Shown: positions 15,476 to 60,231, counted from the stretch's first letter. The stretch: 64,000 nt of DNA from an uncultured bacterium (GCA_902799955.1 CADCCQ010000009.1:3066-67065), one strand, 5' to 3'. A program made the numbers and translations. The notes: generated by a model from the letters alone, not told the origin.

Positions 15476-15490
15476 CAACGGAGCAAGACC

Positions 15491-29679: not shown

Positions 29680-32600
29680 ATGAAAAACGCCAAAACCCTC
29701 TTCCTGATCCCGTGCATTGCAATAGGCCAAGTGCTGGCTGGCACGTCGTTTCTCAACAACAACGCGGTGCTGTCGCAGGCGACGCGCGCGGCCGTGTCGG
29801 CAAACGGCGACAGCCACGCCATAGCGACGGCGGACCCCAATGCCGCGTCGGCCGTCCTGGACTGGACGAAGTTCAACATCGGCAGCGGACAGCAGATGAC
29901 CTTCAACGGCGGCGGAACGACGTTCTTCAACCTTGTGGATGGCGCGGCCGGCAAGTCGCAGATCGACGGCATCATCAACGGCACGGCGGGGAACGTGTGG
30001 GTAATCAACCCGGCGGGCGTGGCGTTCAGCTCCACGGCGCAGATTGACATCGGCGGGCTTTTCGCCGCGGCGGCGGGCAATATCTCGAACGCCGACGCCC
30101 TCCGCTCCGGTTCGGCGTTGCTTCCCGAGTTCTCGTCGTTCGGGGGGCTTGTGTCGTCTGATGCCGGCGCCACTTTCTCGGCCGATCAGGTCGCGTTCCT
30201 GGGGAAGTCTATCTCCTCCGTCGGTGATTTCGCGGGGGTGAATTCGTTGGTTGTTGGCGCGTCGAGCGGGACGATGACAGTTGACGATGTCGGAGGAGGG
30301 AAGGTGTCGGTCAACATTGGCGACTTTACAGCTGCAGACGCAGAGGTGTCGCTTGGAGATTTGGACGTCGGCGGTTCGCTGTCTGTGAAGTCGGCTGGTG
30401 CAATCGTTTCTACATCTCCCAACGCGTCATCGGCACTGGGCCGGCCGATGCTGCGCACTACTACTACGACAGGGTCGATTATCCAGGCCGGCGACATAGA
30501 TATGATGGCTTACGACAATCTGGAAGTTGACGGCAAGTTGCAGTCTACGGCGGGGAACGTGTCACTGCTTTCGTACGGGAATATCGACGTCAACTCCGAA
30601 GTGGATGCCTACGGCAGTGTTTCGGCTGGGGCGCTTGGCAACATCAACATCTCGGCAGATGTCACGGCTCGAGGCGGAGATTCCGGCATTGGCGGTGTAG
30701 AATTATATGCCTATAATGGCAGTGCCACTGTAAACGAGGGCTCGGCGGTCAATTCCGTTGGAACCGTGAATATCACCGCCGGAATAAGTGCAGGTGCGGA
30801 AGGCAACATAAAGGTTGATGGACTCGTCGAGTCGAAGACTGGAGACGTTGAGCTATATTCTGCGTATGGAAATCACTCAACTGGGGACATAGAGATTAAT
30901 GGAACGGTCAATGGCAATGGTGTCCGAATAGGAAGTGGATTGGCTGACATTGTATATTATGCAGAGACTCGGCAACATGAACCTATGCATGCTTCGTCGG
31001 GTAATGGGAACATAACTGTACGGGGGGCTGTGCAGGGGGTTTCGGATATAGCAATTAATACAAACGAAGGTGACATTAATGTTTGTGTAGGAGGCGAAAT
31101 CAAAACCACGGGGAATCATGCTGCGCTTGATATCTCGGCAGGAGACGGAGTAACCATTTCTGGCAATGTGATAGCGGAAAATTCTGGAGACATTGAAATC
31201 GCCTCCTCGCAAGGCATATTCGAGTATGAGGGTAAGGGCATCACAATTGCATCTACGGGTCGGGTGGACGCAGAAGGGGATTTGACTTTTTATTCGGGGC
31301 TGGATGCTGTCTTCTATTCTAATGGGGACTTGCTAGATTTTTGGGGCCTTGGATATGGTGGAGGTGGGATTGTTGTTGACGGAGTAGTCAAATCAAGAGG
31401 TAATATGAGTATTTATTCCGTAGAAGGTGTAACGGGGAAGGGCTTTTTGGATTCAGGAGCGAGTATATTGAAGGTAGACGGAGGAATGGGCGCTATTAAG
31501 TTCACTGGGCAGATCGCTTCAGGGAATACAACTTTTCTGAGTACAACCTATCTTGACTATGACATTGTCGGCGATGTCAGTGTTCCTAATAGCGATAATG
31601 ATTTTAAAGGGGTTGTAAGCGCGTCGGGGAATAACATCTCAATTGTGGACGGGAATTCGCTTGCATTGGGCAATGTTATTGCGTTTGGGGATGTATTTCT
31701 TCGCTCTGGTGAAGGCATACAAGTTATGGCCGGAACTGTGCTTGCAGAGGGGGATGTTACATTGGCGGCAGGTGGTTCTGTGCTTGAGAATGCCGCCGGA
31801 GTTGTAGAGGCAGGACGGAATCTGGTTGTCACGGCCGAGAATGGGAGAATAGGACTTCTTGGAAGTGTCTCTGCTAACGGGGATGCATCTTTCAATGCCG
31901 ATGGACGAGTTGTCGTTGTTTCGGAGAATGGACTTATATCGTTTGGAGGCATAACGGCAAGAGGTAGCGATGTCGATCTGACGGGGCGTGGTGATGTGAG
32001 TGTTGGAGATGTCGTGGCGACTAGTGGAAATGTCAGACTGTACTGGTCAGAGGGGAATGTTCACATTAAAGAGGGATCAACGGTCAAAACATTGGGAGAT
32101 TCAGCCTCCGTGAATGTTGGCATAGATGTTGGCATTGGATCTGGTGGATTGACAGGTAATGGCGACGTTATAGTGGATGGCAATGTGTCAGCAGAGGGAG
32201 ATGGTGGTCGTGTTAATCTTTTGGCAAGGAATGGTAATGTCGTCGTCAATGGGGGGGTGGATTCTTCTGGCGATATTTATATGATGGCTCATGGCGATGG
32301 CGGGGCTGAGGTCGGTCATGATGCTTTAGTCGCCAGTAGGGAAGGTAAGGTAACGATCAGTTCAGATTCAAAGGCAATGTTTATTGACGGCAAGATTGAG
32401 GGAGAGACAGGGGTTTGGCTGATGACATACTCAGGCGACATAGAAGTTGGCAAATCCGCAACACTTCATTCCAGAGGGCCGGGCGGGGGAATTAACGTTT
32501 ACGCGGCCATGGAAAAAGGAGGGCGTGGTAATGCGATTATTAAGGGTAATCTTATTGCAGATGGCAAGGACGGTTCGGTGGCTGTTGCCACTGCAGGTCA

Positions 32601-33945
32601 CAGCGGAGCTAGCGGGGATGTGATTATTGATGGTAGTTTGACAGGGGGTTCCGAAGTGTCAGTACATGGTGCGACGGGTGCGAATGCGACGAAAGGAAAC
32701 GTAACCATAAATGGATCTATTAAGGCAGGCAATCAAGTTCATGCAATTACGGGTAATGGTGATATAGTTGTAAGTGGAACGGGAACGATAAACGTAGAGG
32801 GAGAAGATGGCCTAGTTGTCATGGGTACGGGATTGCGTAGTGGGCAACATGGAGACATTAATATCGGTGGTTCGGTTTTCGCAAATGCGATTGGTGGGGA
32901 GGTCTATTTGGATGCGGGGAGTTCAGATCCCTTTTCCACAGGAGGAATCCACCTTGGGGGCTCTTGTAATATAATGGCCGGGTCTGGTGCATATTTGATT
33001 ACACATAATGGCAATCTCACTCAGAGCGGGGCGAACATTAATCCGCCTGCTAATGGATATGTCTCTGCTGTGTCACTTCATTCTGCTGTGACGGCCCCGA
33101 CTGTGAATTTAAAGGTTGACGGGTCTGTCGGCAATGGGAATTACGGTTTTGTAGCCGTTGACGGCAAGGTGTTTGGAAGTGTAGAAGGCGATGCTTCCAT
33201 TGCCGCTGCGAATGGGAAGCCATTTGTCGGGGGAGAACACATTGGCTCCAAGATTATAAACTTTGGGAAATCTGATATGGGGGAATATGGCACCATGGAC
33301 TTTGGTAGTGTCATTCTCGACTGGGGGAATATGAATGGCGATTCAACGGTTCAGGTGAGAGGCGGTCTTTCCATATACACTGCGTCAAATATTGAGCCGT
33401 ACGGGAATCTCCTTTCTGGAAGGGACATGACGGTCTCTGCGCGCTCTTTCGGCGATGTGAGCTATCTTCGTGCAGGCGGGACGCTGACAATCAACAATGT
33501 TGGGCGCCCAAAATATCCTCGCATCGCGTACTTCGAGTCACTTGATGGCAAGGAGCCCAAAATCAACAACCTCCCCAACGACATGGTGATATTCGTGGAC
33601 GGCCGGCTCGCCGGCGGCAACATCAACATCATGAACATGTTCGGCGCGAACGAGGCGTTCCTCGTCTCGACTCCGGAGCTGAAGTCGACGCAGGGCATCT
33701 TCGGGAATCCGCCGTTCCTCCACAGCGACCTTGACGTTGCGAACCCGATGGAGGTGAGCGCAATCGACTACCTGATCCAGGAGGTGCCCCGCCTTACTCT
33801 TTCCAGCGAGTTCCCGGCGGACGTCGACCAGAAGGTCGAGGCGAACGGCCTGAGCCTCAAGGACAGCTACTGGTTCGGACAGGAACGCGTGGCGAAGAAG
33901 CCGAGCGAGGCGACAGACGGCAAGGTCGCATCAGCAGAGGAGTAG
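29680..33945 (+). CDS. Filamentous-haemagglutinin-type TpsA exoprotein (1421 aa)
   Basis: N-terminal TPS domain: LDWTKFNIGSGQQMTFNGGGTTFFNLVDG...IDGIINGTAGNVWVINPAGVAFSSTAQIDIGGLFAAA. This is followed by a long Gly/Asn/Val-rich beta-helix-like region. No C-terminal toxin motif was recognised. Confidence 0.8.
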   Translation: MKNAKTLFLIPCIAIGQVLAGTSFLNNNAVLSQATRAAVSANGDSHAIATADPNAASAVLDWTKFNIGSGQQMTFNGGGTTFFNLVDGAAGKSQIDGIINGTAGNVWVINPAGVAFSSTAQIDIGGLFAAAAGNISNADALRSGSALLPEFSSFGGLVSSDAGATFSADQVAFLGKSISSVGDFAGVNSLVVGASSGTMTVDDVGGGKVSVNIGDFTAADAEVSLGDLDVGGSLSVKSAGAIVSTSPNASSALGRPMLRTTTTTGSIIQAGDIDMMAYDNLEVDGKLQSTAGNVSLLSYGNIDVNSEVDAYGSVSAGALGNINISADVTARGGDSGIGGVELYAYNGSATVNEGSAVNSVGTVNITAGISAGAEGNIKVDGLVESKTGDVELYSAYGNHSTGDIEINGTVNGNGVRIGSGLADIVYYAETRQHEPMHASSGNGNITVRGAVQGVSDIAINTNEGDINVCVGGEIKTTGNHAALDISAGDGVTISGNVIAENSGDIEIASSQGIFEYEGKGITIASTGRVDAEGDLTFYSGLDAVFYSNGDLLDFWGLGYGGGGIVVDGVVKSRGNMSIYSVEGVTGKGFLDSGASILKVDGGMGAIKFTGQIASGNTTFLSTTYLDYDIVGDVSVPNSDNDFKGVVSASGNNISIVDGNSLALGNVIAFGDVFLRSGEGIQVMAGTVLAEGDVTLAAGGSVLENAAGVVEAGRNLVVTAENGRIGLLGSVSANGDASFNADGRVVVVSENGLISFGGITARGSDVDLTGRGDVSVGDVVATSGNVRLYWSEGNVHIKEGSTVKTLGDSASVNVGIDVGIGSGGLTGNGDVIVDGNVSAEGDGGRVNLLARNGNVVVNGGVDSSGDIYMMAHGDGGAEVGHDALVASREGKVTISSDSKAMFIDGKIEGETGVWLMTYSGDIEVGKSATLHSRGPGGGINVYAAMEKGGRGNAIIKGNLIADGKDGSVAVATAGHSGASGDVIIDGSLTGGSEVSVHGATGANATKGNVTINGSIKAGNQVHAITGNGDIVVSGTGTINVEGEDGLVVMGTGLRSGQHGDINIGGSVFANAIGGEVYLDAGSSDPFSTGGIHLGGSCNIMAGSGAYLITHNGNLTQSGANINPPANGYVSAVSLHSAVTAPTVNLKVDGSVGNGNYGFVAVDGKVFGSVEGDASIAAANGKPFVGGEHIGSKIINFGKSDMGEYGTMDFGSVILDWGNMNGDSTVQVRGGLSIYTASNIEPYGNLLSGRDMTVSARSFGDVSYLRAGGTLTINNVGRPKYPRIAYFESLDGKEPKINNLPNDMVIFVDGRLAGGNINIMNMFGANEAFLVSTPELKSTQGIFGNPPFLHSDLDVANPMEVSAIDYLIQEVPRLTLSSEFPADVDQKVEANGLSLKDSYWFGQERVAKKPSEATDGKVASAEE

Positions 33946-33957
33946 GCGTGGCGGGCA

Positions 33958-36900
33958 ATGGGTAGTGTCGACACAGACATTCTGGGCGGCTTCAGGCTGC
34001 TGAAAGAGCTTGGCTCGGGTGGCGAAGCCAAGGTCTACAAGGCTGTATGTGTGCGCAATATGCATAAGATTGTGCCCAAGGGCAAGGTTGTCGCGCTCAA
34101 GATTGTATACGAGCACGGTGCGGATGCTGATGGCCATTGGCAGAAGTTGCAGACACGCGTCAAGGAGTTGATGCGTCTCGACAATCCGTATGTTGTCCGC
34201 TATCTGGGATGTTTTCGCGAACGCGGACAAGATGGCGAAAAACATGTGGTGGTACAGGAGTTCCTTGAGGGTCGGACACTTAAAGAGCAGCTTGCGCTAT
34301 CCCGGCTGGGACTTGACGTTGATGAAGGCAGGCGTGTGGTGAATCAGGTGCTTGAAGGACTCGACTATACCACCGGCCAAGGCATATATCATCGTGACAT
34401 AAAACCGGCGAATGTCTTTCTTTGCGCGGACGGCGGAGTCAAACTGATAGATTTCGGGGTCGCCAAGCAGGTGGCAGCCAATGTGACCGTGACCGTGTCG
34501 GACAATATTCGCGGAACATGGAACTACATGGCACCAGAGTTCACGTCCCCGTCCTTTAGCGGAGATGTGAGAAGCGATGTCTTTTCCGTGGGCGTGTTGT
34601 TGCACGAGATACTTGTCGGGACCTTGCCTTATGCCGACTTGAACAGCCTCGGCATGTCTGGCTATTATTCCCGCTGGTCGCAGCAGGCCGCCCCGGATGT
34701 CCCTGCAATCAGAGTCGATCCGATGGCGGAACGTCTCTTGATTGGCGTGGAGAACATCCTGTCCGTGGCTCTGGCACGGAATCCTGCCGCTCGATATGCT
34801 TCGTTTAGGGATTTTCGCAGGGCGTTTGACAGGGTGGAGCCAGTCTGCACAAAGGGTGGGGGGCATACGTATCAACGTTTGAAATTCGTCGGCAGGGGTG
34901 GATTTGGCGAGGTGTTCAAGGCACGATGCCAGGAGACAGGCGAGTTGGTGGCCATCAAGAAGCTTCTCAAACCGGAATATGCCAGCCGGTTCCGGCGCGA
35001 GGCCAAGATTATGCGTCGGCTAGACGATCCTTGCTTTGTCAAGTTCATTGATTTCTTCGAATTGCGCGACGGCGCGTTCCTCGTCATGCGCTTTCTTGAG
35101 GGCATGCCAGGCGGCTCGCTGCACGACGCAATCATACGGGCTGGCGAGAAATGCAGAAATGACGACAACAAAGACTGCGGTCTGCCCAAAGCGCTTGTCC
35201 TTGCCGCCTTCGAGCGCTATGCACGCGGACTTGCCGTGTTGCACGGACGGGGGATTGTCCATCGCGACATAAAGCCAAGCAATCTCTACTACCCGGAAGG
35301 ACATCCAGATTGCGTTGCAATCATGGACTTTGGCATAGTTCGAGCCAAGGACACCACGTTTACATACGGGAACGTGCCATGTACGCCAGACTACGCGCCG
35401 CCGGAAATCGTGATTTCCGGTGATCGCGGAGAGCCGGCGATGGACATCTTTTCGCTGGGGCTTTGCATGTACGAGGCGCTGACAGGTGGGCGAAAGTCGT
35501 ATCCAACGCTTGCTTCCGGCACGGCTGGATACAACGCATTATGTCAGCGCGCCAAGACGATGCAGGAACCGAATTTCGACGATTGCCGGGTTCGGGCCGA
35601 CAGTGAGCTTCTCGAATTGCTTCAGCGGATGACGGCTCCCGACAAATCCGTGCGCATGAATGACGCCAACGAGGTCGCCCGGGAGCTCCGCAGGCTCTTC
35701 TACCGTCCAAGTACGGCCCCGGATTGCCCGACGACGGCTGTGTTCGGTTCGTCCCCTGATATTTCCACGCCCATTGATGCCGCGAAATTGCTGGATTGGT
35801 TCAAGGCATGGAGGGAGAAGCACCCCGTTGAAAAGCCCACGCCGTTACCTGAGCCGTGGCCACATCCTGGTCCGCGAAAGACTGCATGGAAGAGTGTGAT
35901 AGTGGTAGCGCTAGTCGTTGCTTCCCTGGGCGTGGCTACATGGCGGGTCGCGAGATTACGATACGGGAAAGACGATTTTGTGCATCCTGAAACTAGGCAG
36001 GATACTGGCAGTTTGACCGAAACAAATCCAGTACAGAAGGTCGTGGCAGAGGTGCCTACGGTTAAACCTGTCCCCGATGACTACATCAAATTGAAGCATC
36101 AGGCGTTTAAAAACGATTTCGACATCCGCATGAGGGACGAGCCTGTGACAAACCGTCGGGACCGTATTGCAAGTGCGGAAAGGCTGCTTCGAAAGGCGAT
36201 TGTCGAGGATCATCTCTGCACCGAAGGGGAGGCTGCGCGTTTTCGTGCGGAAATCGAAGCCGCCAGGAAGAGGGTCGTGGGCGTCTTGAAGAACGGCAGC
36301 GGTCTGGAGCTCGTTGTGGACGGCAGAAAACTTCCCGCAGGTGTTGAACATACGTTCTCCTTCGACGACGGAGAGCCAATAAAACGTACAATGCGGCTGT
36401 TTGGCCACGACGAACGTCCGCTGCCTTCCAACCTTGACGAGAAGGTCATGGTTGTCACGACAAACGATTTCAATGTGTCTACGGTCAAAGTGGAGTTGCC
36501 GGAATCGCTTGAAGGGGGCGTTACGTGTTTCTTCAACGGGAAGCAAGTAGGCGGGGCCGGCTTGTCGCTTACGCCAGGATCGTATGAATGCGTTTACCGG
36601 AGAGAAGGTTATGAAGAGCAAAGGATTGCCTTTGACGTTTTGTTGGGAACGGGCAGATCCATTCCCGAACCAGATCATTGGAAGGCAAAACCCGTAGATG
36701 TCGAATTGCCCGCTTTTGGCAAGGATGTTGTTTGTTCGGTTGATGGCAAACCGTCATCGGAGGTGAAAAGGCTTATGCCAGGTGAACACGCGGTAGAGTA
36801 TAGGCGAAAGGGGTATTTTAATCAGACGATTCCATTCGTGGCAAGATTGTCCGAGCCTGTTTCCGTGCCGTTGCCAGACAGGGAATGGCGCGTGAGGCCC

Positions 36901-37638
36901 GTGCCTGTGGCGGTGCCGGAGCTGGAGCGTGGCGTCTGGTGTGCTATAGACGGGACGAACGTCGCATCCAAGTCTTCCGTTGAATTGATGCCGGGCAAAC
37001 ACGCGCTTGAGTACGAGAGGTACGGATATGTGCGGCAGGGAACCAACTTTGTCGTCAAGGTTGGCGAGGAGAAGGTGGAAGTGCGCGGGCCTTGTCCATG
37101 GGAGATTGCAAAGGTAAGGGTTTCCGTGCCGAAACTGGAACGGGGTGTCGAATGTAGGATCGACGGCAAGAGCGTGGCAGAGGAAATTGACCTCGTCCCG
37201 GGCGGGTATTCATACGAGTATGTTCGGACAGGATTTAAGACGCAGGCCGATCGATTCGTAGTGATGGCAAATCACCCGATGAATCTGCCAGAACCGGGAG
37301 AATGGGTCATGGTGCCCAGTCCAAAAGCAGTGCCGTCAAGTCCCGATGTCCTGTCGCCGTCGTACAAGGAGGCACTGGAACGGTATGCATTTCAGGATTA
37401 TGGTGGTGCACTTGAGAAGTTCCACGCGGCGCTCAAGGAGGACTGCCGCCCTCGTGCGGATGACATGGATAAAATCGAGGATGCTTTCAAGAAGCGCCTT
37501 GAAGAGATAAATGGCCTGATAAATCGGACCAAGGCCGACATTTCGATTGGTCGGGACCCCAAACGCAGCCTGGATGACTTGGACAATGATCGAAAGACCC
37601 TCATCAAGTGGTATAATGAGCTAAAGGCAGCTCGGTAA
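33958..37638 (+). CDS. Membrane-spanning tandem Ser/Thr protein kinase (two Hanks-type kinase domains, one TM helix, PEGA-like repeats)
   Basis: Kinase 1: LGSGGEAKV, VALK, HRDIKPAN, DFGVAK, YMAPE. Kinase 2: GRGGFGEV, VAIKK, HRDIKPSN, DFGIVR, YAPPE. The TM helix is AWKSVIVVALVVASLGVATW. Four ~70-aa repeats and a helical tail follow. Confidence 0.8.
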   Translation: MGSVDTDILGGFRLLKELGSGGEAKVYKAVCVRNMHKIVPKGKVVALKIVYEHGADADGHWQKLQTRVKELMRLDNPYVVRYLGCFRERGQDGEKHVVVQEFLEGRTLKEQLALSRLGLDVDEGRRVVNQVLEGLDYTTGQGIYHRDIKPANVFLCADGGVKLIDFGVAKQVAANVTVTVSDNIRGTWNYMAPEFTSPSFSGDVRSDVFSVGVLLHEILVGTLPYADLNSLGMSGYYSRWSQQAAPDVPAIRVDPMAERLLIGVENILSVALARNPAARYASFRDFRRAFDRVEPVCTKGGGHTYQRLKFVGRGGFGEVFKARCQETGELVAIKKLLKPEYASRFRREAKIMRRLDDPCFVKFIDFFELRDGAFLVMRFLEGMPGGSLHDAIIRAGEKCRNDDNKDCGLPKALVLAAFERYARGLAVLHGRGIVHRDIKPSNLYYPEGHPDCVAIMDFGIVRAKDTTFTYGNVPCTPDYAPPEIVISGDRGEPAMDIFSLGLCMYEALTGGRKSYPTLASGTAGYNALCQRAKTMQEPNFDDCRVRADSELLELLQRMTAPDKSVRMNDANEVARELRRLFYRPSTAPDCPTTAVFGSSPDISTPIDAAKLLDWFKAWREKHPVEKPTPLPEPWPHPGPRKTAWKSVIVVALVVASLGVATWRVARLRYGKDDFVHPETRQDTGSLTETNPVQKVVAEVPTVKPVPDDYIKLKHQAFKNDFDIRMRDEPVTNRRDRIASAERLLRKAIVEDHLCTEGEAARFRAEIEAARKRVVGVLKNGSGLELVVDGRKLPAGVEHTFSFDDGEPIKRTMRLFGHDERPLPSNLDEKVMVVTTNDFNVSTVKVELPESLEGGVTCFFNGKQVGGAGLSLTPGSYECVYRREGYEEQRIAFDVLLGTGRSIPEPDHWKAKPVDVELPAFGKDVVCSVDGKPSSEVKRLMPGEHAVEYRRKGYFNQTIPFVARLSEPVSVPLPDREWRVRPVPVAVPELERGVWCAIDGTNVASKSSVELMPGKHALEYERYGYVRQGTNFVVKVGEEKVEVRGPCPWEIAKVRVSVPKLERGVECRIDGKSVAEEIDLVPGGYSYEYVRTGFKTQADRFVVMANHPMNLPEPGEWVMVPSPKAVPSSPDVLSPSYKEALERYAFQDYGGALEKFHAALKEDCRPRADDMDKIEDAFKKRLEEINGLINRTKADISIGRDPKRSLDDLDNDRKTLIKWYNELKAAR
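36484..37323 (+). repeat. Four tandem ~70-codon PEGA-like repeats inside the kinase gene
   Basis: Repeat starts are at 36484 (VKVELPES), 36694 (VDVELPAF), 36901 (VPVAVPEL) and 37114 (VRVSVPKL). Each contains a conserved C..(D/N)GK...L.PG.(Y/H)..(V/E)Y.R.G(Y/F) core. Confidence 0.7.
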
Positions 37639-37652
37639 GGAGATGTGCTGTC

Positions 37653-38828
37653 ATGGGCGAGAATCTTGAAGCTGCAAAATACGATGTATTCATCAGTTAC
37701 TCTAGACGGGATATGGGAAGTGTGCAGCCTGTTGTCGACCGGCTGAGGGCAGAGGGGTATAGTTGCTGGATGGACGTGAACGGCATTGAAAGTGGTGATG
37801 AATTCCGTTCAAAACTGGTTGATGCCATAGAGCGCTCCTGCATTGTGGTGTTCTTCTCGTCTGCTGATTCCAATGTGTCAAAATGGACCAGGCGGGAGCT
37901 TTCGGTTGCCGATGAATGTCACAAGCCGATAATTCCCGTCAGGCTTGACCACGCACCATATTCCAATGCCATCAAGCTTATTCTGACGGGCGTGGACTAC
38001 ATTGATTTCCAGGCGGTGGAATTGCGCATGGCGGCAACTGAGAGGTTGCTCAGAAGTGTCAAGGAGAAGACGGAAGATGTCTTGTCGGGACATACGGGGA
38101 TGAAGGGTTTGACCTTGCCCGGTGGTGTGTCAATGCGTTTTAGGTGGTGTCCGCCCGGGACGTTTATGATGGGGAGTCCGCAGACAGAGGAGGGGCATGC
38201 CCAAGATGAGATTCTACATCGCGTCACGCTTACAAAAGGCTTCTGGATGGGGGAGACCCCTGTGACGCAGAGGCAGTGGGAAGCCGTCATGGGTGACAAC
38301 CCTTCTGTTTGCCGGGGCGCGGATCATCCCGTTGAAGGGGTCTCGTGGCATGACTGCATGGATTTCATCAGAAAGGTGAACGAGCAGCAGAAATGCGCAC
38401 TGCGTCTGCCGACGGAGGCGGAATGGGAATATGCCTGTCGTGCCGAGACGAACGGACCATTTGGCGGGAATGGGGTCTTGTGCGAGATGGGGTGGTATAA
38501 TGACGACAGCTACGGCGAAATGCAACCATCGCGGTCGTCCCATCCTGTCAAGAAGAAAGAGCCTAACAAATGGGGCCTCTACGATATGCATGGGAATGTC
38601 TGGGAATGGTGCAGCGACTGGTACGGGGCGTATTCTGCGGAATCGGTCACAGACCCCATTGGGCCGCCCGAAGGGAAGCTGAAGATACGTCGCGGCGGTT
38701 CGTGGCAAGACGAGGCGATGGCATGTCGCTCCGCCTACCGTTTAGTGTTTTCGCCCGAGTCGCGGCACAGCCTCCTGGGTTTCCGTGTCGCATTCGATGC
38801 TGACGCATACGAGGAGAAGGAGAAATGA
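37653..38828 (+). CDS. TIR domain fused to an FGE-sulfatase (SUMF1/PvdO-type) domain
   Basis: TIR motifs: YDVFISYSRRD ... SKWTRRELSVA (conserved Glu). FGE-type motifs: FMMGSP, HRVTLTKGFWMGETPVTQRQWEAVMG, PVEGVSWHDCMDFI, RLPTEAEWEYACR, HGNVWEWCSDWY, RRGGSW...CRSAYR...GFRVAF. There is no signal peptide or TM helix. Confidence 0.8.
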   Translation: MGENLEAAKYDVFISYSRRDMGSVQPVVDRLRAEGYSCWMDVNGIESGDEFRSKLVDAIERSCIVVFFSSADSNVSKWTRRELSVADECHKPIIPVRLDHAPYSNAIKLILTGVDYIDFQAVELRMAATERLLRSVKEKTEDVLSGHTGMKGLTLPGGVSMRFRWCPPGTFMMGSPQTEEGHAQDEILHRVTLTKGFWMGETPVTQRQWEAVMGDNPSVCRGADHPVEGVSWHDCMDFIRKVNEQQKCALRLPTEAEWEYACRAETNGPFGGNGVLCEMGWYNDDSYGEMQPSRSSHPVKKKEPNKWGLYDMHGNVWEWCSDWYGAYSAESVTDPIGPPEGKLKIRRGGSWQDEAMACRSAYRLVFSPESRHSLLGFRVAFDADAYEEKEK

Positions 38829-39136
38829 TGAAATGCAATGAGACAGACAAAGAGTGTTGTCGTCCGCAATCGACGGATACGGGCGATGTCGCATTGCCTG
38901 AATCGCTCATGCCGCTCATCGAGGCGTTGGCGGAGAACGTCCATGACACATGGGCGAAGGGACGAATGGACGAGGGCTGGACATACGGCCCCGTCCGCGA
39001 CGACGCAAGGAAACAGCATCCTTGCCTTGTCCCCTACGCCGACCTTCCCGAATCCGAGAAGGCATACGACCGTGCCACGGCAATTTCAACACTGAAGTTC
39101 ATCTGCAAGATGGGATACGAACTTTGTCTTAGATGA
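38825..39136 (+). CDS. Stand-alone RyR (ryanodine-receptor repeat) domain protein, 103 aa
   Basis: LIEALAENVHDTWAKGRMDEGWTYGPVRDDARKQHPCLVPYADLPESEKAYDRATA matches the RyR-domain consensus almost position by position. The ATGA overlap with the TIR-FGE stop suggests translational coupling. Confidence 0.75.
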   Translation: MMKCNETDKECCRPQSTDTGDVALPESLMPLIEALAENVHDTWAKGRMDEGWTYGPVRDDARKQHPCLVPYADLPESEKAYDRATAISTLKFICKMGYELCLR

Positions 39137-39171
39137 GTAATATGAATTCAAAGGAGAACAGATAACTCGCC

Positions 39172-39510
39172 ATGAAAATGATTACACTTAATGTTACGCG
39201 TGATAAATCACTTGTCGGAGCGGGAATGTCCTATCGCATTTTCATCAATGACAAGGAGGTTGCCAAACTAAGAATCGGCAAGACTTTCTCCTGCCAGTTG
39301 CCAGGCGAACAGTTTACATTGCGCGCTTCAATGGTTGGGAACGCATTGTCATTTCATAAAATCGGGAAGGAGGTCGCAGTATTCCCAGAATACAGTAAGT
39401 CGGGCGTGATTAACTGTAAATTGAGAACACGACAAAATTGGCTGGGTTTTCTTACGCTTGGGATGTTTCAGGCGATTGGCAGAACGGAAATTGAGGTGTT
39501 GTATCAATGA
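39172..39510 (+). CDS. Hypothetical protein (112 aa)
   Basis: Good RBS (aaaggaga) and a beta-rich sequence (YRIFINDKEVAKLRIGKTFSCQLPGEQFTL). No motif was recognised with confidence. Confidence 0.45.
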   Translation: MKMITLNVTRDKSLVGAGMSYRIFINDKEVAKLRIGKTFSCQLPGEQFTLRASMVGNALSFHKIGKEVAVFPEYSKSGVINCKLRTRQNWLGFLTLGMFQAIGRTEIEVLYQ

Positions 39511-39520
39511 GGATTGAACG

Positions 39521-41086
39521 ATGAAGTATTTGGTGATGTTTCTGTCCTGGGCGTTTGGCGTACTGACGGTTCTTTTCCTTGTGTTCATGTCAATGACGCT
39601 TCTGGACGTAGGATCGGCAGACATACCGATAGTATTGGAGAATACAGATGAATACGCCCGTGTCAAATGGGAATTGGAGGGACGTGATTTTGGGCAACCA
39701 ATCATGCTGGTCGTTAGTTATTTTCTGTTCGCCGTTACACATTCGCTTCATCATAGGCTACGAAAAAAGAAATGCGACACGCTCAACGTCGATGCCATAG
39801 AAGGGCCCTTCGTGCTTTATCTGCGCTCCTTTATCGCGGACAGGATAACATCCAGACGGATTTCTCTGTTTGCAGACATCCGTTCGGAGGAAGAGACTCT
39901 AGTTGATGTTCTTTCTGAAATTGCCCCGGTCTATGCAATCGGGGACCCCAAGGACAAGAAAATGCCCGTGGGAGCTTCGCGGATATATGTGGACGACGGG
40001 CACTGGAAGACCACTGTGGAGAAGTTGTCCCAAAAAGCCGTCGTTGTTGTTTTACGACTTGGGGAAACCGACAGTTTCTGGTGGGAAGTGGAAATGGCCG
40101 CACAGAAAGTCCCTCTTGAGAAACTGTTGTTTGTCGTGCCAGAATGCAAGACGTTCAGTAATGTCGCAACGCTATATAAGGTACTACTCGATAATAAAAT
40201 TGACATAAAATCGGCAGGAATCAGCATTGACAGGAAATCGAGGGGGTCAATTTCCAGTTTCATGTTCTTTGGTCGTGACGGAACTCCTGTCGCCAAATCG
40301 GTTAAAATTCCCAGATTTACGCAAATCGTTGTTTCATATGAAAACATACTGAGAAATGCGCTGGCCGAGTTCCGTGCCAAGTACGGATTGCATGCCAGAT
40401 GGGGTGCTGCCATAAGATGGGCGCAATTGCTCCAGATAGTTGTGGTTGGCAGTATGTTTCTTACATTTGTGTCCTTGGGCGTTAGAGATTTCACCAGATT
40501 GAACTGCCAAATGCCGTATGAACTGCTGGAGAAATGCGTTGAGTATCCAGAGTTTACGTCTAAATATTCCAATGATATAAATGGTTCATGCCTAATTTGT
40601 GCGATTGATGAATCTGTAAAAGGTTATTTATGGCTTGCCGACGAGAAGTATAAATTTATGTTATGCACTGAAGCAAAAGCTATTCGGGCAATGAGTCAAG
40701 GCGAACTTAGACAATTGTCAAAGGCACAAAAGAACTCTTTGCTAATGATTAAGAAATACGTTCCTGAATGCTATGATGAGTATGTCGGCATCCTAGCGGA
40801 GGCGGCGATTCTGTCAATTCAACGCCCTAAAGAGACAGAGGATCTAATAAAAGCATATAAGCGCAAGATTGATATGCTTCCGCAATGGATGATAGATTTT
40901 GAGATGAGTCTGCATGATGAATGTGACAACATGCTGATGCGGCTTTCCGACGAAGTTGTCAAACACATTGACGAAAGCAATATTGTCGAAACATTAAAGA
41001 TACTTCATAGTCAAACCATAAATGTTGGTAATACCTCAACTCAAGGGGAAAGTCAACCGTTGGATGAGGATTCGGCGGATATGTGA
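39521..41086 (+). CDS. Hypothetical three-TM membrane protein, possible divergent TIR-like/flavodoxin-fold cytoplasmic domain
   Basis: Two N-terminal TM helices, a basic stretch (HHRLRKKK) and a third TM helix around AIRWAQLLQIVVVGSMFLTFV. The intervening domain shows the strand-helix pattern FVLYLRSF ... PVYAIGDP ... AVVVVLRLGETDSFWWEVEMA. Confidence 0.45.
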   Translation: MKYLVMFLSWAFGVLTVLFLVFMSMTLLDVGSADIPIVLENTDEYARVKWELEGRDFGQPIMLVVSYFLFAVTHSLHHRLRKKKCDTLNVDAIEGPFVLYLRSFIADRITSRRISLFADIRSEEETLVDVLSEIAPVYAIGDPKDKKMPVGASRIYVDDGHWKTTVEKLSQKAVVVVLRLGETDSFWWEVEMAAQKVPLEKLLFVVPECKTFSNVATLYKVLLDNKIDIKSAGISIDRKSRGSISSFMFFGRDGTPVAKSVKIPRFTQIVVSYENILRNALAEFRAKYGLHARWGAAIRWAQLLQIVVVGSMFLTFVSLGVRDFTRLNCQMPYELLEKCVEYPEFTSKYSNDINGSCLICAIDESVKGYLWLADEKYKFMLCTEAKAIRAMSQGELRQLSKAQKNSLLMIKKYVPECYDEYVGILAEAAILSIQRPKETEDLIKAYKRKIDMLPQWMIDFEMSLHDECDNMLMRLSDEVVKHIDESNIVETLKILHSQTINVGNTSTQGESQPLDEDSADM

Positions 41087-41096
41087 CAATCTTGAA

Positions 41097-41234
41097 ATGA
41101 AAAGGGAACCAGGGATGGAGAGATCAATCATCAAGACTCATGTATTCGTCAGCTACGCTCGTAGTGATGTGACGGAAGTGGCTAACCTGCTTCAGCGGAG
41201 ACTTTGGGCGATATTTCCACGGGGAAGGGGTTGA
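41097..41234 (+). pseudogene. 45-codon fragment resembling the N-terminus of a TIR-domain gene
   Basis: Hand translation gives MKREPGMERSIIKTHVFVSYARSDVTEVANLLQRRLWAIFPRGRG*. A TIR betaA-type motif (VFVSYARSD) is present, but the ORF stops after 45 codons. Confidence 0.4.
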
Positions 41235-41238
41235 ATAA

Positions 41239-41376
41239 ATGACACCTAAACGAATCATCCTTGTGCGGCATGTGCGGTCGGCGGCGAATGACGATCCGAC
41301 CGTGTACAGCCGAGTGCCCGACTACAAGATTGAGTCTGTGGATGAGGGGCGCGAACAGTCTGGAGATCTTGCATGA
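41239..41376 (+). pseudogene. 45-codon fragment resembling the N-terminus of a histidine-phosphatase-superfamily gene (copy 1)
   Basis: Hand translation gives MTPKRIILVRHVRSAANDDPTVYSRVPDYKIESVDEGREQSGDLA*. The family RHG motif is degraded to RHV. A paralogous copy lies at 42989..43126. Confidence 0.4.
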
Positions 41377-41510
41377 ATGTTGTCGACAGAATGGCGCGGT
41401 TGGCGATGATCGCGCATAACGGCGTTAACCGAAAGGGACCAGGCAATAAGCCGTATATTGTTCATCCTCATGCCGTTGTGGTGATGTTGAAGGATATGCC
41501 GGTGCGATAA
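41373..41510 (+). pseudogene. 45-codon fragment resembling the N-terminus of an HD-domain (RelA/SpoT-type (p)ppGpp hydrolase-like) gene
   Basis: Hand translation gives MNVVDRMARLAMIAHNGVNRKGPGNKPYIVHPHAVVVMLKDMPVR*. Compare the canonical AHxGQxRKxxGxPYIxHPLxVAxIL. The ORF stops before the HD dyad. Its ATGA overlaps the preceding fragment. Confidence 0.4.
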
Positions 41511-41571
41511 TGAAGTCATGGCGATTTGTCCAAGAAAACGTTTGTAAGTTCAAACAGGAAAAGAACAACTG

Positions 41572-41718
41572 ATGGAATATGGCATCTACATCTCATATCG
41601 CCGCGAGGGGACTCTATCGGTTTTGCAATTGCCTCTTAAGTTAGTGACGCCCTATGCGGAATATATTCGGCATGAGAGGTTCTGTTGCGAGAAGCGCGGA
41701 GTGTGTTCCGCATTTTAG
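41572..41718 (+). pseudogene. 48-codon fragment resembling the N-terminus of the TIR paralogs at 43895/45712
   Basis: Hand translation gives MEYGIYISYRREGTLSVLQLPLKLVTPYAEYIRHERFCCEKRGVCSAF*. IYISYRREG matches the IFISYRREGG of the downstream TIR genes. Confidence 0.35.
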
Positions 41719-41735
41719 TTGCCGCATTTTAGTTG
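41708..41735. repeat. Perfect 14-bp tandem duplication (ccgcattttagttg x2)
   Basis: Read directly from the sequence: 41708-41721 is identical to 41722-41735. It lies about 50 nt upstream of the ATPase start. Confidence 0.9.
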
Positions 41736-41786
41736 TGTTTTGGTACGAATTATGGTATACTTGTGTGCAAAATAGAGGATTTGAAC

Positions 41787-42992
41787 ATGATAGATCGTCC
41801 TTATGGACTTAAGTGGCTTTGGCAATGGAAAGACCAGGAGCCGATAAAAGTCGTCACCGGCATACGCCGGTGCGGCAAATCAACATTGCTTTCAATGTTT
41901 CAGGGGCAATTGCGCGAAGACGGCATCAACGCCGATCAGATTGTCGCCATCAACTTTGAGCATCCGGATTTCATGGAACTTGACAATTCTGTCGCCGTAT
42001 GGAAATACTTGAAACCGAAAATTGTTCAGGGACGAAATACATACGTCTTTCTTGATGAAATTCAACGTGTAAGGGACTTTGAAAAGGTGGTTGACGGACT
42101 TTTTGTGCTGCCTGACGTTGATGTGTACATAACGGGGTCCAATGCCTATCTTCTGTCTGGGGAATTGGCTACATATCTGTCCGGTCGCTATGTCGCGCTC
42201 CATTTGACGCCGCTGTCTTTCCGCGAGTACTATGATGGCGTTGCCTCGTCCGAGTCGCCGGAACGTGCATATCGCGACTATCTTGCATTCAGTTCGTTCC
42301 CCCACAATCGCGCATGGGACAAGGAGCCGGGGCTTGTCGACGATTACATGGAGGGCATCTTAAACACGGTTCTACGAAAGGACGTCATAAACAGAAATGC
42401 ATTTCGCAATCCTGTTGCGCTTGATGCCGTGGCACGATACGTCTTCGGCAACATCGGGAATCTCACGAGCATGCGGAATATCGCGACAGTCCTGAAGTCC
42501 GAAGGTGTTTCAATTGATGCTTCTTCAGTCGAGGACTATGTCTCCGCCCTATGTGGGGCGTATCTAGCCTACAAGGCAGTCCCTAAAGATCTGCGCGGCA
42601 GGGAATTGCTCAAATCGGGCGCAAAATACTATGTCGTGGACATGGGATTGCGTCGGTTTATTCTCGGAAGCCGTGCATTCGACATGGGGCGCGTACTTGA
42701 GAATGTCATATATCTTGAACTTGCCAGGCGTCATCAAGAAGTCTATGTCGGCAGGGTGGATGGACGCGAGGTCGATTTTGTCACGCGGGACGGAGGTGAT
42801 GTCAGATACTGGCAGGTGGCGGAGACATTACGTGGTGAAGGTGTCCGCGACAGGGAGTTCGCTCCGCTAAAGGCGATTGCCGACCATTGTCCCAAGACGA
42901 TTCTATCCCTTGATCTTGACCCCGTTGGCTACGACATCGGCATCAAGACTATGAATGCGCTTGATTTTCTGCTGGAGAAGGGAGAGGAATGA
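41787..42992 (+). CDS. AAA_14/DUF4143-family ATPase
   Basis: N-terminus MIDRPYGLKWLWQWKDQEPIKVVTGIRRCGKSTLL (Walker A) and Walker B-like VFLDEIQRV. An RBS (gagga) lies 9 nt upstream of 41787. The track ORF starts earlier, at 41733. Confidence 0.7.
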   Translation: MIDRPYGLKWLWQWKDQEPIKVVTGIRRCGKSTLLSMFQGQLREDGINADQIVAINFEHPDFMELDNSVAVWKYLKPKIVQGRNTYVFLDEIQRVRDFEKVVDGLFVLPDVDVYITGSNAYLLSGELATYLSGRYVALHLTPLSFREYYDGVASSESPERAYRDYLAFSSFPHNRAWDKEPGLVDDYMEGILNTVLRKDVINRNAFRNPVALDAVARYVFGNIGNLTSMRNIATVLKSEGVSIDASSVEDYVSALCGAYLAYKAVPKDLRGRELLKSGAKYYVVDMGLRRFILGSRAFDMGRVLENVIYLELARRHQEVYVGRVDGREVDFVTRDGGDVRYWQVAETLRGEGVRDREFAPLKAIADHCPKTILSLDLDPVGYDIGIKTMNALDFLLEKGEE

Positions 42993-43126
42993 CGCTGAAG
43001 CAAACAATTCTTGTACGGTATGGTCGGTTGGTGGCGAATGACGATCCGACCATGTATAGCCGTATCCCCGACTACAAGATCGAGCCTGTCAAACAGGGTT
43101 CGTGGCCTGGAGGGTATGAGACATGA
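42989..43126 (+). pseudogene. 45-codon histidine-phosphatase-like N-terminal fragment (copy 2)
   Basis: Hand translation gives MTLKQTILVRYGRLVANDDPTMYSRIPDYKIEPVKQGSWPGGYET*. It is the same length as the copy at 41239 and has the same ATGA junction to the next ORF (MNAVG vs MNVVD). RHG is degraded to RYG. Confidence 0.4.
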
Positions 43127-43894: not shown

Positions 43895-44281
43895 ATGAAT
43901 AAGTCACAGCAATACGACATCTTCATTTCATACCGTCGCGAGGGCGGGTATGACACGGCGCAACTGCTGTATGACAGGCTGACGCAGATGCGCTATCGCG
44001 TATCGTTCGACCTGGAGACATTGCGAGGCGGAAAGTTCAACACGCAACTTTACAAGCGCATTGAGCAATGCTCGGACGTGCTTGTCGTCATGAGCAGGGA
44101 TTCTCTGAACCTTCGCGAGAACCCGGAGGACGACTGGTTCCGACTTGAGATTGCCCATGCGCTGAAGCACAAGAAGAACATCGTCCCAGTGTTCCTAAGG
44201 GACTTCAAGTTCCCGCAGAAAGGGGAGCTGCCCGAAGACATAGCCGACCTGGTGAACTATAGCATTTCGACAGTGTACTGA
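43895..44281 (+). CDS. TIR-domain ORF (128 aa); 5' part of a TIR-TM-PDZ-like gene split by a 35-nt insertion
   Basis: YDIFISYRREGGYDTAQLLYDRL ... DDWFRLEIAHAL. It is nearly identical in protein sequence to residues 8-127 of the 45712 paralog and then diverges into SISTVY*. Confidence 0.7.
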   Translation: MNKSQQYDIFISYRREGGYDTAQLLYDRLTQMRYRVSFDLETLRGGKFNTQLYKRIEQCSDVLVVMSRDSLNLRENPEDDWFRLEIAHALKHKKNIVPVFLRDFKFPQKGELPEDIADLVNYSISTVY

Positions 44282-44331
44282 AGCGAATATGCAGGAACTT
44301 CAAGGCGAAGCCCCATCGGCACAAATGGCCG

Positions 44332-45678
44332 GTGGTCGCCGCCATTGCCGCTGCCCTTCTTGTCGGCGCGGGGATTGGAGTCTGGCTGAAGGCAGACAAG
44401 ATTTTCCCCTATCCTTTTACCAGAGAGGCAAGACAGGAGGTTGATGCATACTATGGAACTGTGTTGCGGATTGGGGCCGCCTATAATGAATTTCTGTCCG
44501 CAAAGATGGAACTTCTTGACAAGGTCAGTTTGAGTATAGAATCTGAAGACAAGGCGCCATATCAAGCCGCCGTACCAGAGTTCTTGCATCGACGCGGAAT
44601 GGCGAGAAAAAATCTCGACGCCGCTGCTGAGGCGTTGGAAAGAGTTGTCAAGGAGAACCCCGGATTGCGTGTGGATCGCGCATACATACCGAATTTCCTA
44701 GAGGGGGTACGACAGGAATTCGGCGATGCGGATGAGTGGGCTGCTCTTTTCAGCCTCCCGTGTGATCCTGATTACGTATGCTCAAAGGCAAACAGGATTA
44801 GGATTGTCATGCTCAATCGCAAGGAGATTGAGATATATGCCGACGTGTTTGCCTATGGCGTCATGTTCCTTTTCGACATGATTTCGCCGGAAGCGCTCGC
44901 TGACTTTAGGGAAGTCGCGGCAAAACAGTGGACGATGTTGAAGCGGTTCAGAGGCGAATGGCTGTCAGATCAAAAGCAGATTGAACAGAATGGCGAGGCT
45001 TCGCTGAACCAGCTTCAAGAAGTGGTCGAGGAGCTTGCGCAGATAATAGGAAATACGGCACAGGCCCTGGAGCAGGCTAAGCGCAACACCAAGCAAATGA
45101 GAATAGACGCGGGAATGTCGCCGGAACAAGCCGAGAGAATCGGCAAGAAGGAGGAGGAGCTTGAGAATTTGAAGGCGCAGAGGAAAGAGACGCAAAAAGC
45201 GATAGCGGATACGCGAGAGCGGATTCGCAAGAAGTTTGCGCCGAAGGATGATGACGACATTGGAATACTTTGGGGCAAAGCGTTGCGGTTCATGTCGGTT
45301 AATATGCCTGAAGACGCCAAGTTATGCATTGATGCGTTACGTCGGCGCAACACTTCGGAGTTTCCGCCCGTGGCGCTTGACACGGCGGAGGCGATATTCT
45401 TGTCTAAGGAACCGTTGCCTTTTGTGGACGGCGTCCTGGTTTGCGCATACGAACCGCCGGCGACGTCTCATGCCATATTCAAAGTCGGAGACGTCATCAC
45501 GAAAGTGAACGAGAAGCCATGTCGGCGTTATGAAGACTATCGTAACAAGGCCGGCAACACCTACACGATATACCGTAGGAACGCGAAGGGCCAGTTTGAC
45601 AAGCTGACGGCAACCATGCCTGAAGGCCAGCCGCGTGTGGCTCTGGTGGATTTGACGGAGAAGGGCTCTGGCAAGTAA
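44332..45678 (+). CDS. TM-coiled-coil-PDZ-like ORF; 3' part of the split TIR paralog (GTG start in the track)
   Basis: It is colinear with residues ~141-626 of the 45712 paralog. The TM helix is VVAAIAAALLVGAGIGVWL. The C-terminus GVLVCAYEPPATSHAIFKVGDVITKVNEKPC...YTIYRRNAKGQFDKLT is PDZ-like. Confidence 0.6.
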   Translation: MVAAIAAALLVGAGIGVWLKADKIFPYPFTREARQEVDAYYGTVLRIGAAYNEFLSAKMELLDKVSLSIESEDKAPYQAAVPEFLHRRGMARKNLDAAAEALERVVKENPGLRVDRAYIPNFLEGVRQEFGDADEWAALFSLPCDPDYVCSKANRIRIVMLNRKEIEIYADVFAYGVMFLFDMISPEALADFREVAAKQWTMLKRFRGEWLSDQKQIEQNGEASLNQLQEVVEELAQIIGNTAQALEQAKRNTKQMRIDAGMSPEQAERIGKKEEELENLKAQRKETQKAIADTRERIRKKFAPKDDDDIGILWGKALRFMSVNMPEDAKLCIDALRRRNTSEFPPVALDTAEAIFLSKEPLPFVDGVLVCAYEPPATSHAIFKVGDVITKVNEKPCRRYEDYRNKAGNTYTIYRRNAKGQFDKLTATMPEGQPRVALVDLTEKGSGK

Positions 45679-45711
45679 ACAGACGGAATAAAGACATTGG
45701 AGGGTGAACAC

Positions 45712-60137: not shown

Positions 60138-60231
60138 CCGTTGCCCACTCCCCCAGGGCTTCCCGATTCGATTCACTTGATTGTACAACTTTCCACTTCC
60201 TCTTTGGTTGTTGGATAGGTTGTATATTGAC

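Follow-up and report, generated by a model that had tools for sequence, protein, structure and literature searches.

The DNA stretch analysed here (the window) comprises 64,000 nucleotides from an uncultured bacterium (GCA_902799955.1, CADCCQ010000009.1:3066-67065), whose genome is probably one of the Kiritimatiellae. We studied a pair of genes on its plus strand, together with their surroundings and their relatives in other genomes. The upstream gene codes for a TIR domain fused to a domain of the FGE-sulfatase/C-type-lectin fold ('FGS'; FGE, formylglycine-generating enzyme), and the downstream gene for a small protein that consists of a stand-alone RyR domain. We call the fusion protein TIR-FGS in the window and TIR-FGE, its equivalent name, where its homologs are concerned. 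The features of the pair, in positions counted from the first letter of the window, are as follows.

37653..38828, plus strand: TIR-FGS (= TIR-FGE) fusion protein, 391 aa (open reading frame, Pfam)
37686..38018, plus strand: TIR domain, aa 12-122 (Pfam TIR_2, E 1.1e-23)
37896-37898, plus strand: codon GAG of the predicted catalytic Glu82 (HMMER alignment to AbTIR and SARM1)
38148..38792, plus strand: FGS domain, aa 166-380 (Pfam, E 2.6e-47)
38724-38726, plus strand: codon TGT of Cys358, the sole Cys after GGSW
38825..39136, plus strand: stand-alone RyR (Repeat12-type) protein, 103 aa (open reading frame, Pfam)

Both reading frames lie where the original prediction, made from the DNA sequence, had placed them; Pfam assigns their domains far above the curated cut-offs, and all TIR and FGE motifs quoted in that prediction were found in the translation. 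The stop codon of TIR-FGS shares the tetranucleotide ATGA (38825-38828) with the start codon of RyR, as had been proposed, and a GGAG-rich stretch, GAGGAGAAGGAGAAATGA, is located just ahead of it. No strong plus-strand terminator was detected in a terminator scan between the preceding kinase gene (described below), TIR-FGS and RyR; the sigma-70/terminator scan is otherwise uninformative for this phylum. A 19-residue Kyte-Doolittle scan revealed no hydrophobic segment of the signal peptide or transmembrane (TM) type in TIR-FGS, in agreement with the earlier claim, or in RyR, the peak means being 1.02 and 0.97, respectively; the island that harbours the pair also encodes true membrane proteins, and these reach 2.2-2.5. 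TIR-FGS is hence predicted to be a cytoplasmic protein.

The TIR domain (PF13676/PF01582) scores 84.4 bits against the TIR_2 profile (cut-off 28), and HMMER alignments place its Glu82 (WTRRE) on the corresponding Glu of AbTIR (WTNYE) and SARM1 (WVHKE; E642). This residue is invariant across 7 full-length TIR-FGE homologs, and the active-site Glu of TIR-FGS is intact. PADLOC gave matches to ThsB and Aga-TIR, the best being to the pAgo-associated TIR effector class. The FGS domain scores 162 bits against the FGE-sulfatase profile (PF03781), and its best match among PDB sequences is TvpA (2y3c), followed by human FGE; the FGE matches have E 1e-23, and PvdO and EgtB are matched as well. Cys358, which the original prediction had recognised as the single Cys after GGSW, is aligned with the Cys of '...HRSYC' in human FGE, which we take to be C341. 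The partner position is occupied by Asp353, opposite Cys336 of wild-type human FGE, a position given as Ser in the matched PDB chains. Among the homologs the residue at the place of Asp353 is Asp or Ser and never Cys (7/7), and Cys358 is invariant. FGE requires both copper-binding cysteines (human C336 and C341), of which the TIR-FGE proteins keep one. Because one of the two catalytic cysteines is missing family-wide, the FGS domain does not seem to be a bona fide formylglycine-generating enzyme, and judging from these residues it could not act as a normal FGE, as had been suspected for the window protein.

The finding of TvpA as the best PDB match raised the possibility that the FGS domain is a target of a diversity-generating retroelement (DGR), which three lines of evidence rule out. 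No direct repeat in the 64-kb window involves positions 37653-38828, as would be expected of a template repeat; no reverse transcriptase domain occurs among the annotated neighbours of TIR-FGS; and the C-terminus is not hypervariable: across the homologs the RGGSWQDEAxACRSAYRFVFSP block shows the same conservation as the remainder of the sequence. Since the signs of a DGR and the first catalytic Cys are both absent, we regard the FGS domain as a probable fixed, non-FGE lectin-fold module. According to a published computational view, FGS domains placed C-terminally to an effector are intracellular invader-binding modules (PMC7159879, PMC8195603). TIR-FGS is a further member of this architectural theme, and the fusion by itself is ordinary. 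The AlphaFold2 model of TIR-FGS, built from an alignment of 7 sequences, has a pLDDT of 48 and is too low for use.

The 103-aa protein matches the RyR profile (PF02026) over residues 13-100 (E 6.2e-33; 113 bits, cut-off 27.4). It resembles a stand-alone Bacteroides RyR protein of equal size (3nrt; E 8.7e-33) and also repeat 1 of the animal RyR2 (E 6.7e-20), with which it shares the ligand His, Trp and His. Two preprints of 2026 on phage proteins bear on its function. RyDEP, a PF02026 protein from a mycobacteriophage, acts as an inverting glycosidase and opens the ribose-ribose bond of the cyclic ADP-ribose (cADPR) isomers 2'cADPR and 3'cADPR, H75 and D117 serving as the catalytic dyad and W78 and H100 as ligand contacts, and other phage homologs are sponges that bind 2'/3'cADPR with nanomolar affinity (PMC13232231). 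The structure of one RyR-type sponge (RyR-Tad) has been obtained with 3'cADPR bound (10.64898/2026.06.04.730250). In the window protein H40, W43, H65 and D82 have offsets (+3, +25, +42) identical to those of RyDEP H75/W78/H100/D117; H40, W43 and D82 are invariant among 18 homologs and H65 is found in 16/18. By spacing and motif the window RyR thus appears to keep the cADPR-binding and catalytic residues defined in the phage proteins. The phage biochemistry together with the four kept residues makes a role of RyR as binder of a TIR-derived nucleotide well founded, and strongly backs the original prediction, which had named the protein as a candidate for such a role. Binding and cleavage are not separable by sequence, because glycosidase and sponge-type homologs are highly conserved (PMC13232231). 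According to the same preprint, no cellular 2'/3'cADPR hydrolases are known (PMC13232231).

The genomic setting of RyR genes was surveyed by a scan of one genome per species, which gave at least 592 matches; the best 80 loci, chiefly from animal-gut Bacteroidales, Clostridia, Kiritimatiellae and Planctomycetes, were analysed and underlie the counts given here. A TIR gene is located within 8 kb of RyR in 31/80 of these species-level loci, and all TIR calls (46/46) were confirmed as Pfam TIR_2. The TIR domain is mostly N-terminal in these proteins, followed by TPR, WD40 or other sensor-like modules. The TIR genes are largely co-oriented with RyR (41/46; p 4e-8), and their density falls from 0.085/kb beside RyR to 0 at 7-8 kb (near vs far, p 0.0016). 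Over the RyR loci it amounts to 44.7/Mb, compared with 1.8-7.2/Mb in FGE-centred control loci (556 kb; p 1.8e-5). This genomic link supports the partnership of RyR and TIR proposed in the original prediction. The commonest neighbour of RyR, however, is an unannotated protein, here called X, whose gene lies within 8 kb of RyR in 43/80 loci; in most cases it immediately precedes RyR, at a distance of -37 to +26 bp. X, RyR and TIR genes form one tight co-directional cluster in 13/80 loci. Bacterial stand-alone RyR genes are therefore linked both to TIR-sensor genes and to X.

RyR loci without X have other conflict-system proteins as neighbours, such as TPR-CHAT, nSTAND1-LRR and a protein that joins a kinase to a Card1-like nuclease. 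The last of these, a 1472-aa protein encoded directly upstream of RyR at L053:3562-7977, may represent another type of RyR-linked effector. The viral RyR loci, in contrast to the genomic ones, have neither X nor TIR in 14/15 cases (Fisher vs genomic: p 0.0006 for X and 0.017 for TIR), and the stand-alone RyRs of these viral contigs (L104-L118, IMG/VR) are 51-62% identical to the window RyR. The exception is L117, where RyR and TIR are accompanied by X on the opposite strand; it may be a misclassified bacterial fragment. A prophage or anti-defence origin of the window RyR gene was also considered and ruled out: the gene is located in a chromosomal low-GC island, viral RyR loci are without X and TIR, and the island genes gave no PHROGs match to phage-function genes. 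As genomic RyRs associate with X and TIR and viral ones do not, the role of the window RyR is probably on the host side, as receptor or buffer.

The window itself contains a member of the X family:

21635..23551, plus strand: protein X, 638 aa, candidate effector (without Pfam match)

Besides the window, X is found in L015-L024, L026, L033-L035, L040, L041, L044-L049 and other loci. The proteins are 630-990 aa in length, and all of their 72 homolog clusters (72/72) are unnamed and without a Pfam domain; two clusters kept apart by BLAST belong to one family (hhalign 99.8%, E 6.5e-29). The N-terminal part of the family members contains two to four hydrophobic helices (aa 1-19, 22-40 and 83-101 in the window protein), followed by a core with a GxGxxG Rossmann motif and weak TrkA_N/NAD-binding matches. 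For the C-terminus hhalign gave a match to the RyR profile (probability 95.5%, E 1.5e-8), with invariant H540, W543, H584 and D619 (window numbering) at the ligand positions. The AlphaFold2 model of the window X has a pLDDT of 87.6 and a pTM of 0.84, and its top Foldseek matches in PDB are the GsuK channel with its tandem RCK ring, the DMI1 gating ring and MthK. From this model we infer that X may be a channel-like membrane protein with N-terminal helices and a tandem Rossmann/RCK-like core. In one locus (L045:1654-4038) X is fused to RyR, so that its own RyR-like domain and a canonical RyR domain follow in tandem within one protein. The same tandem order is known from Repeat1-2 of eukaryotic RyR, and it speaks for docking onto X as the normal state of the separate RyR protein. 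Sister loci from Kiritimatiellae have X next to RyR in operons that include TIR genes, namely TIR-RHS ... X-RyR in L015-L022 and X-RyR-TIR-TIR in L023.

Full-length homologs of TIR-FGE are rare: 5.8 billion proteins contained six clusters of them, with identities of 51-99%. A metagenome scan with the TIR-FGE alignment gave mostly FGE-only paralogs, which were used as a background control, and three distant fusions. The gene order downstream of TIR-FGE is as follows.

Window and L009/L010: TIR-FGE 98% identical; RyR is the next gene
L004/L005: TIR-FGE 52% identical to the window; RyR is the next gene (74% identical)
L001 and L002/L003: TIR-FGE 70% identical to the window; an 800-aa surface protein with signal peptide is next, no RyR
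L006 and L007/L008: TIR-FGE 72% and 51% identical; contigs too short beyond the gene
L188, distant fusion: 30% identical; no RyR within 2.7 kb downstream

The contigs of the distant fusions L125 and L154 end at or just past the fusion gene. RyR accordingly follows TIR-FGE in 2/3 lineages with readable downstream sequence. TIR-FGE genes regularly followed by RyR, as had been envisaged, do not exist as a conserved two-gene system, RyR being missing in L001-L003 and L188; the pair is recurrent but facultative. The 800-aa surface protein encoded after TIR-FGE in L001-L003 was considered as a relative of X and rejected, for it has no hidden Markov model match, carries a signal peptide and consists of beta-rich repeats.

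Upstream of the pair, three further genes are arranged in close succession on the same strand, and two of them are parts of a two-partner secretion (TPS) system.

27769..29652, plus strand: TpsB (ShlB/FhaC-type) outer-membrane transporter (Pfam ShlB, E 5e-19; same position in L005)
29680..33945, plus strand: TpsA-type exoprotein, 1421 aa, with TPS domain (Pfam TPS, E 8.5e-17), 12 bp upstream of the kinase gene
33958..37638, plus strand: dual Ser/Thr kinase, 1226 aa, with two Pkinase domains (Pfam), ending 14 bp before TIR-FGS

A single TM helix (aa 647-665) lies between the two domains of the kinase, whose C-terminal region of ~560 aa is without Pfam match; PADLOC matches the protein to mad6 and PD-T4-6-like. 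Its single TM helix suggests that it is probably a receptor kinase. A dual kinase of this kind (~1130-1230 aa) precedes TIR-FGE in 5/6 lineages (L001, L002/L003, L004/L005, L006 and L009/L010), with a PP2C phosphatase inserted ahead of it in L004/L005, and it is this kinase, not RyR, that is the steady neighbour of TIR-FGE. TpsA is syntenic in L001, L004/L005 and L009/L010, and TpsB is found further upstream where the contig reaches it (window and L005). No toxin domain was detected by Pfam in TpsA.

All of these genes are part of a low-GC stretch that extends from ~20 to ~48 kb (45-56% GC, compared with ~65% in the flanks), in which the order is X, HlyD/AcrB, TpsB, TpsA, kinase, TIR-FGS, RyR, a variable cassette, AAA_14/DUF4143 and three TIR loci, all on the plus strand. 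The gene pair probably belongs to a horizontally acquired, TIR-rich island of immune type. The features downstream of RyR are these:

39172..41086, plus strand: variable cassette of a 112-aa and a 521-aa two-TM open reading frame, ~45% GC (no Pfam match)
41733..42992, plus strand: AAA_14/DUF4143 ATPase (PADLOC candidate PDC-S01), with a 98.8% identical copy in L009
43123..43869, plus strand: 248-aa TIR protein (Pfam TIR_2), its TIR domain followed by a TM helix at aa 166-184
43895..45678, plus strand: split TIR copy of 128 aa (TIR) and 448 aa (Pfam TIR_2 for the 128-aa reading frame; tblastn to the 639-aa TIR protein of L004)
45697..47592, plus strand: TIR-TM-ectodomain protein, 631 aa, with a TM helix at aa 140-158 (Pfam TIR_2)

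Directly after RyR the cassette has been swapped between closely related loci. DNA homology between the window and L009 ends at 39114 and is found again from 41625 onwards, with flanks 92-97% identical, and positions 39115-41624 of the window correspond to 8291-12833 of L009, where a 1466-aa TIR + RHS-repeat gene is present. Related loci contain no counterparts of the 112-aa and 521-aa reading frames, which as parts of this swapped cassette were rejected as conserved partners. The AAA_14/DUF4143 gene is bracketed by a 111-nt direct repeat (77%; 41238-41348 and 42988-43098), which may be the footprint of an inserted cassette. Positions 43895-45678 and 45697-47592 form a tandem duplication (the direct repeats D1, D2 and D6 are 78-91% identical), the former copy being probably a frameshifted pseudogene or a split gene. 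In L004, a TIR gene located two genes downstream of RyR codes for a protein that is 49% identical to the 631-aa TIR protein. In the 631-aa protein and in that of 43123-43869 the TIR domain is predicted to be inside and the C-terminal domain outside, a topology in the style of Toll-like receptors. The sister locus L009 also encodes a TIR-Macro-TIR protein (14371-16101; 576 aa); Macro domains are binders of ADP-ribose (ADPR) derivatives, and the protein adds to the nucleotide-signalling flavour of the locus. Outside the low-GC island, a 179-nt direct repeat (88%; 60217-60395 and 61849-62027) flanks a 476-aa open reading frame (60396-61826) in a second GC dip at 60-62 kb, a region that may be another inserted element.

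Several known systems resemble parts of this arrangement. In Thoeris, TIR gene(s) stand beside an effector with an ADPR-signal-binding domain and membrane effectors are common, as in the X-RyR-TIR(-TIR) layout of the 13 tightly clustered loci. The survey by Yirmiya et al. describes types I-XI with 29 effector types, among them the 'ion channel' effector of type X from Bacillus and Vibrio (10.64898/2025.12.03.692087), and neither bacterial RyR-domain proteins nor FGE are named in its main text or in the supplementary text searched (10.64898/2025.12.03.692087). By description the nearest types are type X, with the ion-channel effector ThsK, and type II with its TM-Macro effector. However, none of the known effector domains (SIR2-SLOG, Macro, caspase-like, DUF2270, DUF6650, SLATT and others) is seen here; the putative receptor would be RyR/Repeat12, split between X and a 100-aa protein, and the TIR domains are fused to large sensor modules (FGS, TPR, WD40 and TM-ectodomains). 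PADLOC and Pfam identified no ThsA-type protein in the window, only ThsB-like TIR matches. The phage RyDEP and RyR-Tad proteins share PF02026, the small size class and the H/W/H/D residues with the window RyR, but the latter is chromosomal and stands in an operon with a TIR gene, with no phage genes around.

For the FGS domain the closest parallels are the sensors of nucleoside triphosphate-dependent conflict systems (Kaur, Burroughs, Iyer and Aravind), in which the effector is N-terminal and a non-catalytic, lectin-like FGS domain C-terminal (PMC7159879, PMC8195603), and the DGR target TvpA (PMC10907252) as the best PDB match. These conflict systems are known from multicellular cyanobacteria and actinobacteria, whereas the host here appears to be a gut member of the Kiritimatiellae, and the window has TpsB/TpsA, the dual kinase, RyR, AAA_14/DUF4143 and TIRs as neighbours in place of a MoxR, vWA or STAND partner. 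X recalls GsuK and MthK in its layout of N-terminal helices and tandem Rossmann-type RCK domains, and one GsuK entry was deposited as 'bound to ADP'; yet X is only 11-14% identical to them, lacks a TVGYG-type filter and has an extra RyR-like C-terminus, so that ion conduction can only be suggested. X plus RyR (as in the L045 fusion) also resembles the animal ryanodine receptor as a tandem RyR-repeat module on a channel-like membrane protein, although its membrane part is unrelated to the RyR/IP3R pore and it possesses RCK-like Rossmann domains. To our knowledge, direct binding of cADPR to the animal Repeat12 is unproven. Polymorphic toxin and contact-dependent inhibition systems, finally, share TpsB and TpsA with a TPS domain with the window, but the TIR domains here are N-terminal on separate proteins that are non-secreted or TM-anchored.

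The reading that we favour, with a probability of about 0.45, is that the island encodes a Thoeris-like TIR signalling system whose nucleotide binder is RyR, probably as a subunit of the effector X. The one low-GC island of the window contains X, RyR and TIR-FGS as well as three or four further TIR genes; all three components are thus present, with RyR placed behind TIR-FGS. To the observed domain identities, conserved residues and genomic linkage, the model adds a signal, an RyR-X complex and a channel function, which we infer. The FGS domain would bind an invader-derived ligand, for which the other TIR proteins of the island would instead use their TM-anchored, outward-facing domains. Ligand binding would activate the TIR domain, which would turn NAD+ into a signal derived from ADPR, namely a cADPR isomer, and the RyR protein would bind this signal. 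Together with the RyR-like C-terminus of X it would form a module like the tandem Repeat1-2, similar to that of the natural X-RyR fusion, and switch on X; the ion leak or depolarisation that follows would lead to abortive infection. The dual kinase would probably gate or prime TIR-FGS. Several TIR sensors would then serve one effector, as in Thoeris, with RyR replacing SLOG or Macro as the receptor. Only tentatively do we extend this to the view that X and RyR constitute a TIR-nucleotide-gated membrane channel, which would serve as effector in a widespread and so far undescribed Thoeris-like system of gut Bacteroidales, Clostridia, Kiritimatiellae and Planctomycetes. It would also represent a prokaryotic forerunner of cADPR-ryanodine-receptor signalling, with the phage RyR sponges as decoy copies of the receptor subunit of the host.

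A number of observations weigh against this interpretation. In the window RyR is coupled to TIR-FGS and not to X, which fits a buffering role at least as well, and X is 15 kb away, separated from RyR by the HlyD/AcrB efflux pair as well as the TPS genes; a homolog 83% identical to the window X sits in a different context (L103). TIR-FGE relatives of 70% identity are without RyR, 23/80 RyR loci have neither X nor TIR (about half of these on cut-off contigs), and the presence of X and that of TIR are statistically independent across RyR loci. All RyR-domain proteins tested so far are inhibitors, either sponges or a glycosidase, and none is a signal transducer (PMC13232231; 10.64898/2026.06.04.730250). 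Signal production by the TIR domain and plain burning of NAD+ cannot be told apart at the level of the protein sequence. The Foldseek TM-scores of X are low (0.29-0.46) and the protein has no K+-selectivity motif, for which reasons the term channel is used here in a conditional sense.

Part of this evidence would also suit a built-in signal buffer or off-switch, in which a host RyR sponge or glycosidase removes the cADPR isomers made by leaky TIRs. Produced stoichiometrically with TIR-FGS by translational coupling, RyR would set the threshold of activation and guard against autoimmunity, comparable to the ring nucleases of type III CRISPR systems, and phages would have borrowed the host RyR as an anti-Thoeris weapon. 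Such a role would agree with the sequestering or cleaving activity of all tested homologs, the kept positions of the catalytic dyad (H40 and D82), the similarity of viral-contig RyRs to the window protein, the overlap of the RyR gene with TIR-FGS and not with X in the window, L009 and L004, and the size of about 100 aa without an output domain. We rank it as the main rival, but as less likely than the favoured reading: the commonest partner of RyR is X, with genes that often overlap and one tandem fusion, which suggests a complex over a free sponge; a constitutive nanomolar sponge within a signalling operon would blunt the defence; and the preprint knows of no cellular 2'/3'cADPR hydrolases. 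Less probable again is a kinase-controlled NADase, where TIR-FGS is an NAD+-depleting executioner under the dual kinase (with PP2C in relatives) and RyR a facultative accessory or passenger. The constancy of the kinase in 5/6 lineages, the PP2C of L004/L005, the lack of RyR in L001-L003, the pAgo-associated TIR effector class as the best PADLOC match and the occurrence of RyR beside CHAT, STAND and kinase-nuclease genes all point in this direction. A passenger would not, however, be expected directly after TIR-FGE in two lineages that are only 52% identical in that protein, nor would it show proximity, co-orientation and distance decay with TIR genes across phyla; moreover, the ligands of RyR domains are TIR products.

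Two other explanations seem very improbable to us. The locus might be a two-partner-secretion conflict locus, where TpsB/TpsA delivers or displays a toxin, the TIRs and RyR are toxin/immunity cassettes and RyR neutralises incoming TIR products. TpsB, TpsA, the kinase and TIR-FGE are indeed syntenic in several lineages with gaps of 10-30 bp, and the cassette swap, including the TIR-RHS gene of L009, occurs directly after RyR. In polymorphic toxins the toxin part is C-terminal, but the TIR domains here are N-terminal and TIR-FGS has no secretion signal; most RyR loci of other phyla are without TPS genes among the neighbours scanned, and the neighbours are typical of intracellular conflict systems. 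Just as improbably, the FGE-fold domain would be a true enzyme, FGE-like or an oxidase like EgtB or PvdO, that couples a redox or modification reaction to the TIR domain. This could account for the strong Pfam FGE-sulfatase match, for the conserved core motifs including Cys358, and for FGE, PvdO and EgtB among the PDB matches. It is opposed by the loss of one of the two catalytic cysteines in every homolog and by the best PDB match, TvpA, which is a ligand-binding DGR variable protein; furthermore, no sulfatase or partner enzyme was found among the annotated genes of the island.

Taken together, the coupling of RyR to TIR-FGS is real, recurrent and mechanistically meaningful. Of the interpretation first given to the pair, the non-FGE nature of the FGS domain, the idea of a nucleotide ligand for RyR and the link between RyR and TIR genes have stood, but the notion of a conserved two-gene system has not. 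The statement that no characterised system is built in this way still applies to the TIR-FGE/RyR gene set, although the link between RyR and cADPR is now known from the phage preprints. Beyond these two preprints the literature searched yielded nothing on bacterial RyR with TIR, on RyR with TrkA/RCK or on X, and the wider association of RyR, X and TIR is, as far as we can tell, undescribed.

ADPR derivatives made by TIR domains are immune signals in bacteria, plants and animals, and the direct action of cADPR on ryanodine receptors has been a question for decades. The phage preprints showed that RyR domains bind or cleave TIR signals; the evidence presented here suggests that host RyR genes belong to TIR loci and to X. 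If the proposed reading is true, RyR would be a new receptor domain and X a new effector class for TIR signalling, and the origin of the phage sponges would be explained. The system would also offer a simple bacterial setting for nucleotide gating through an RyR repeat module.

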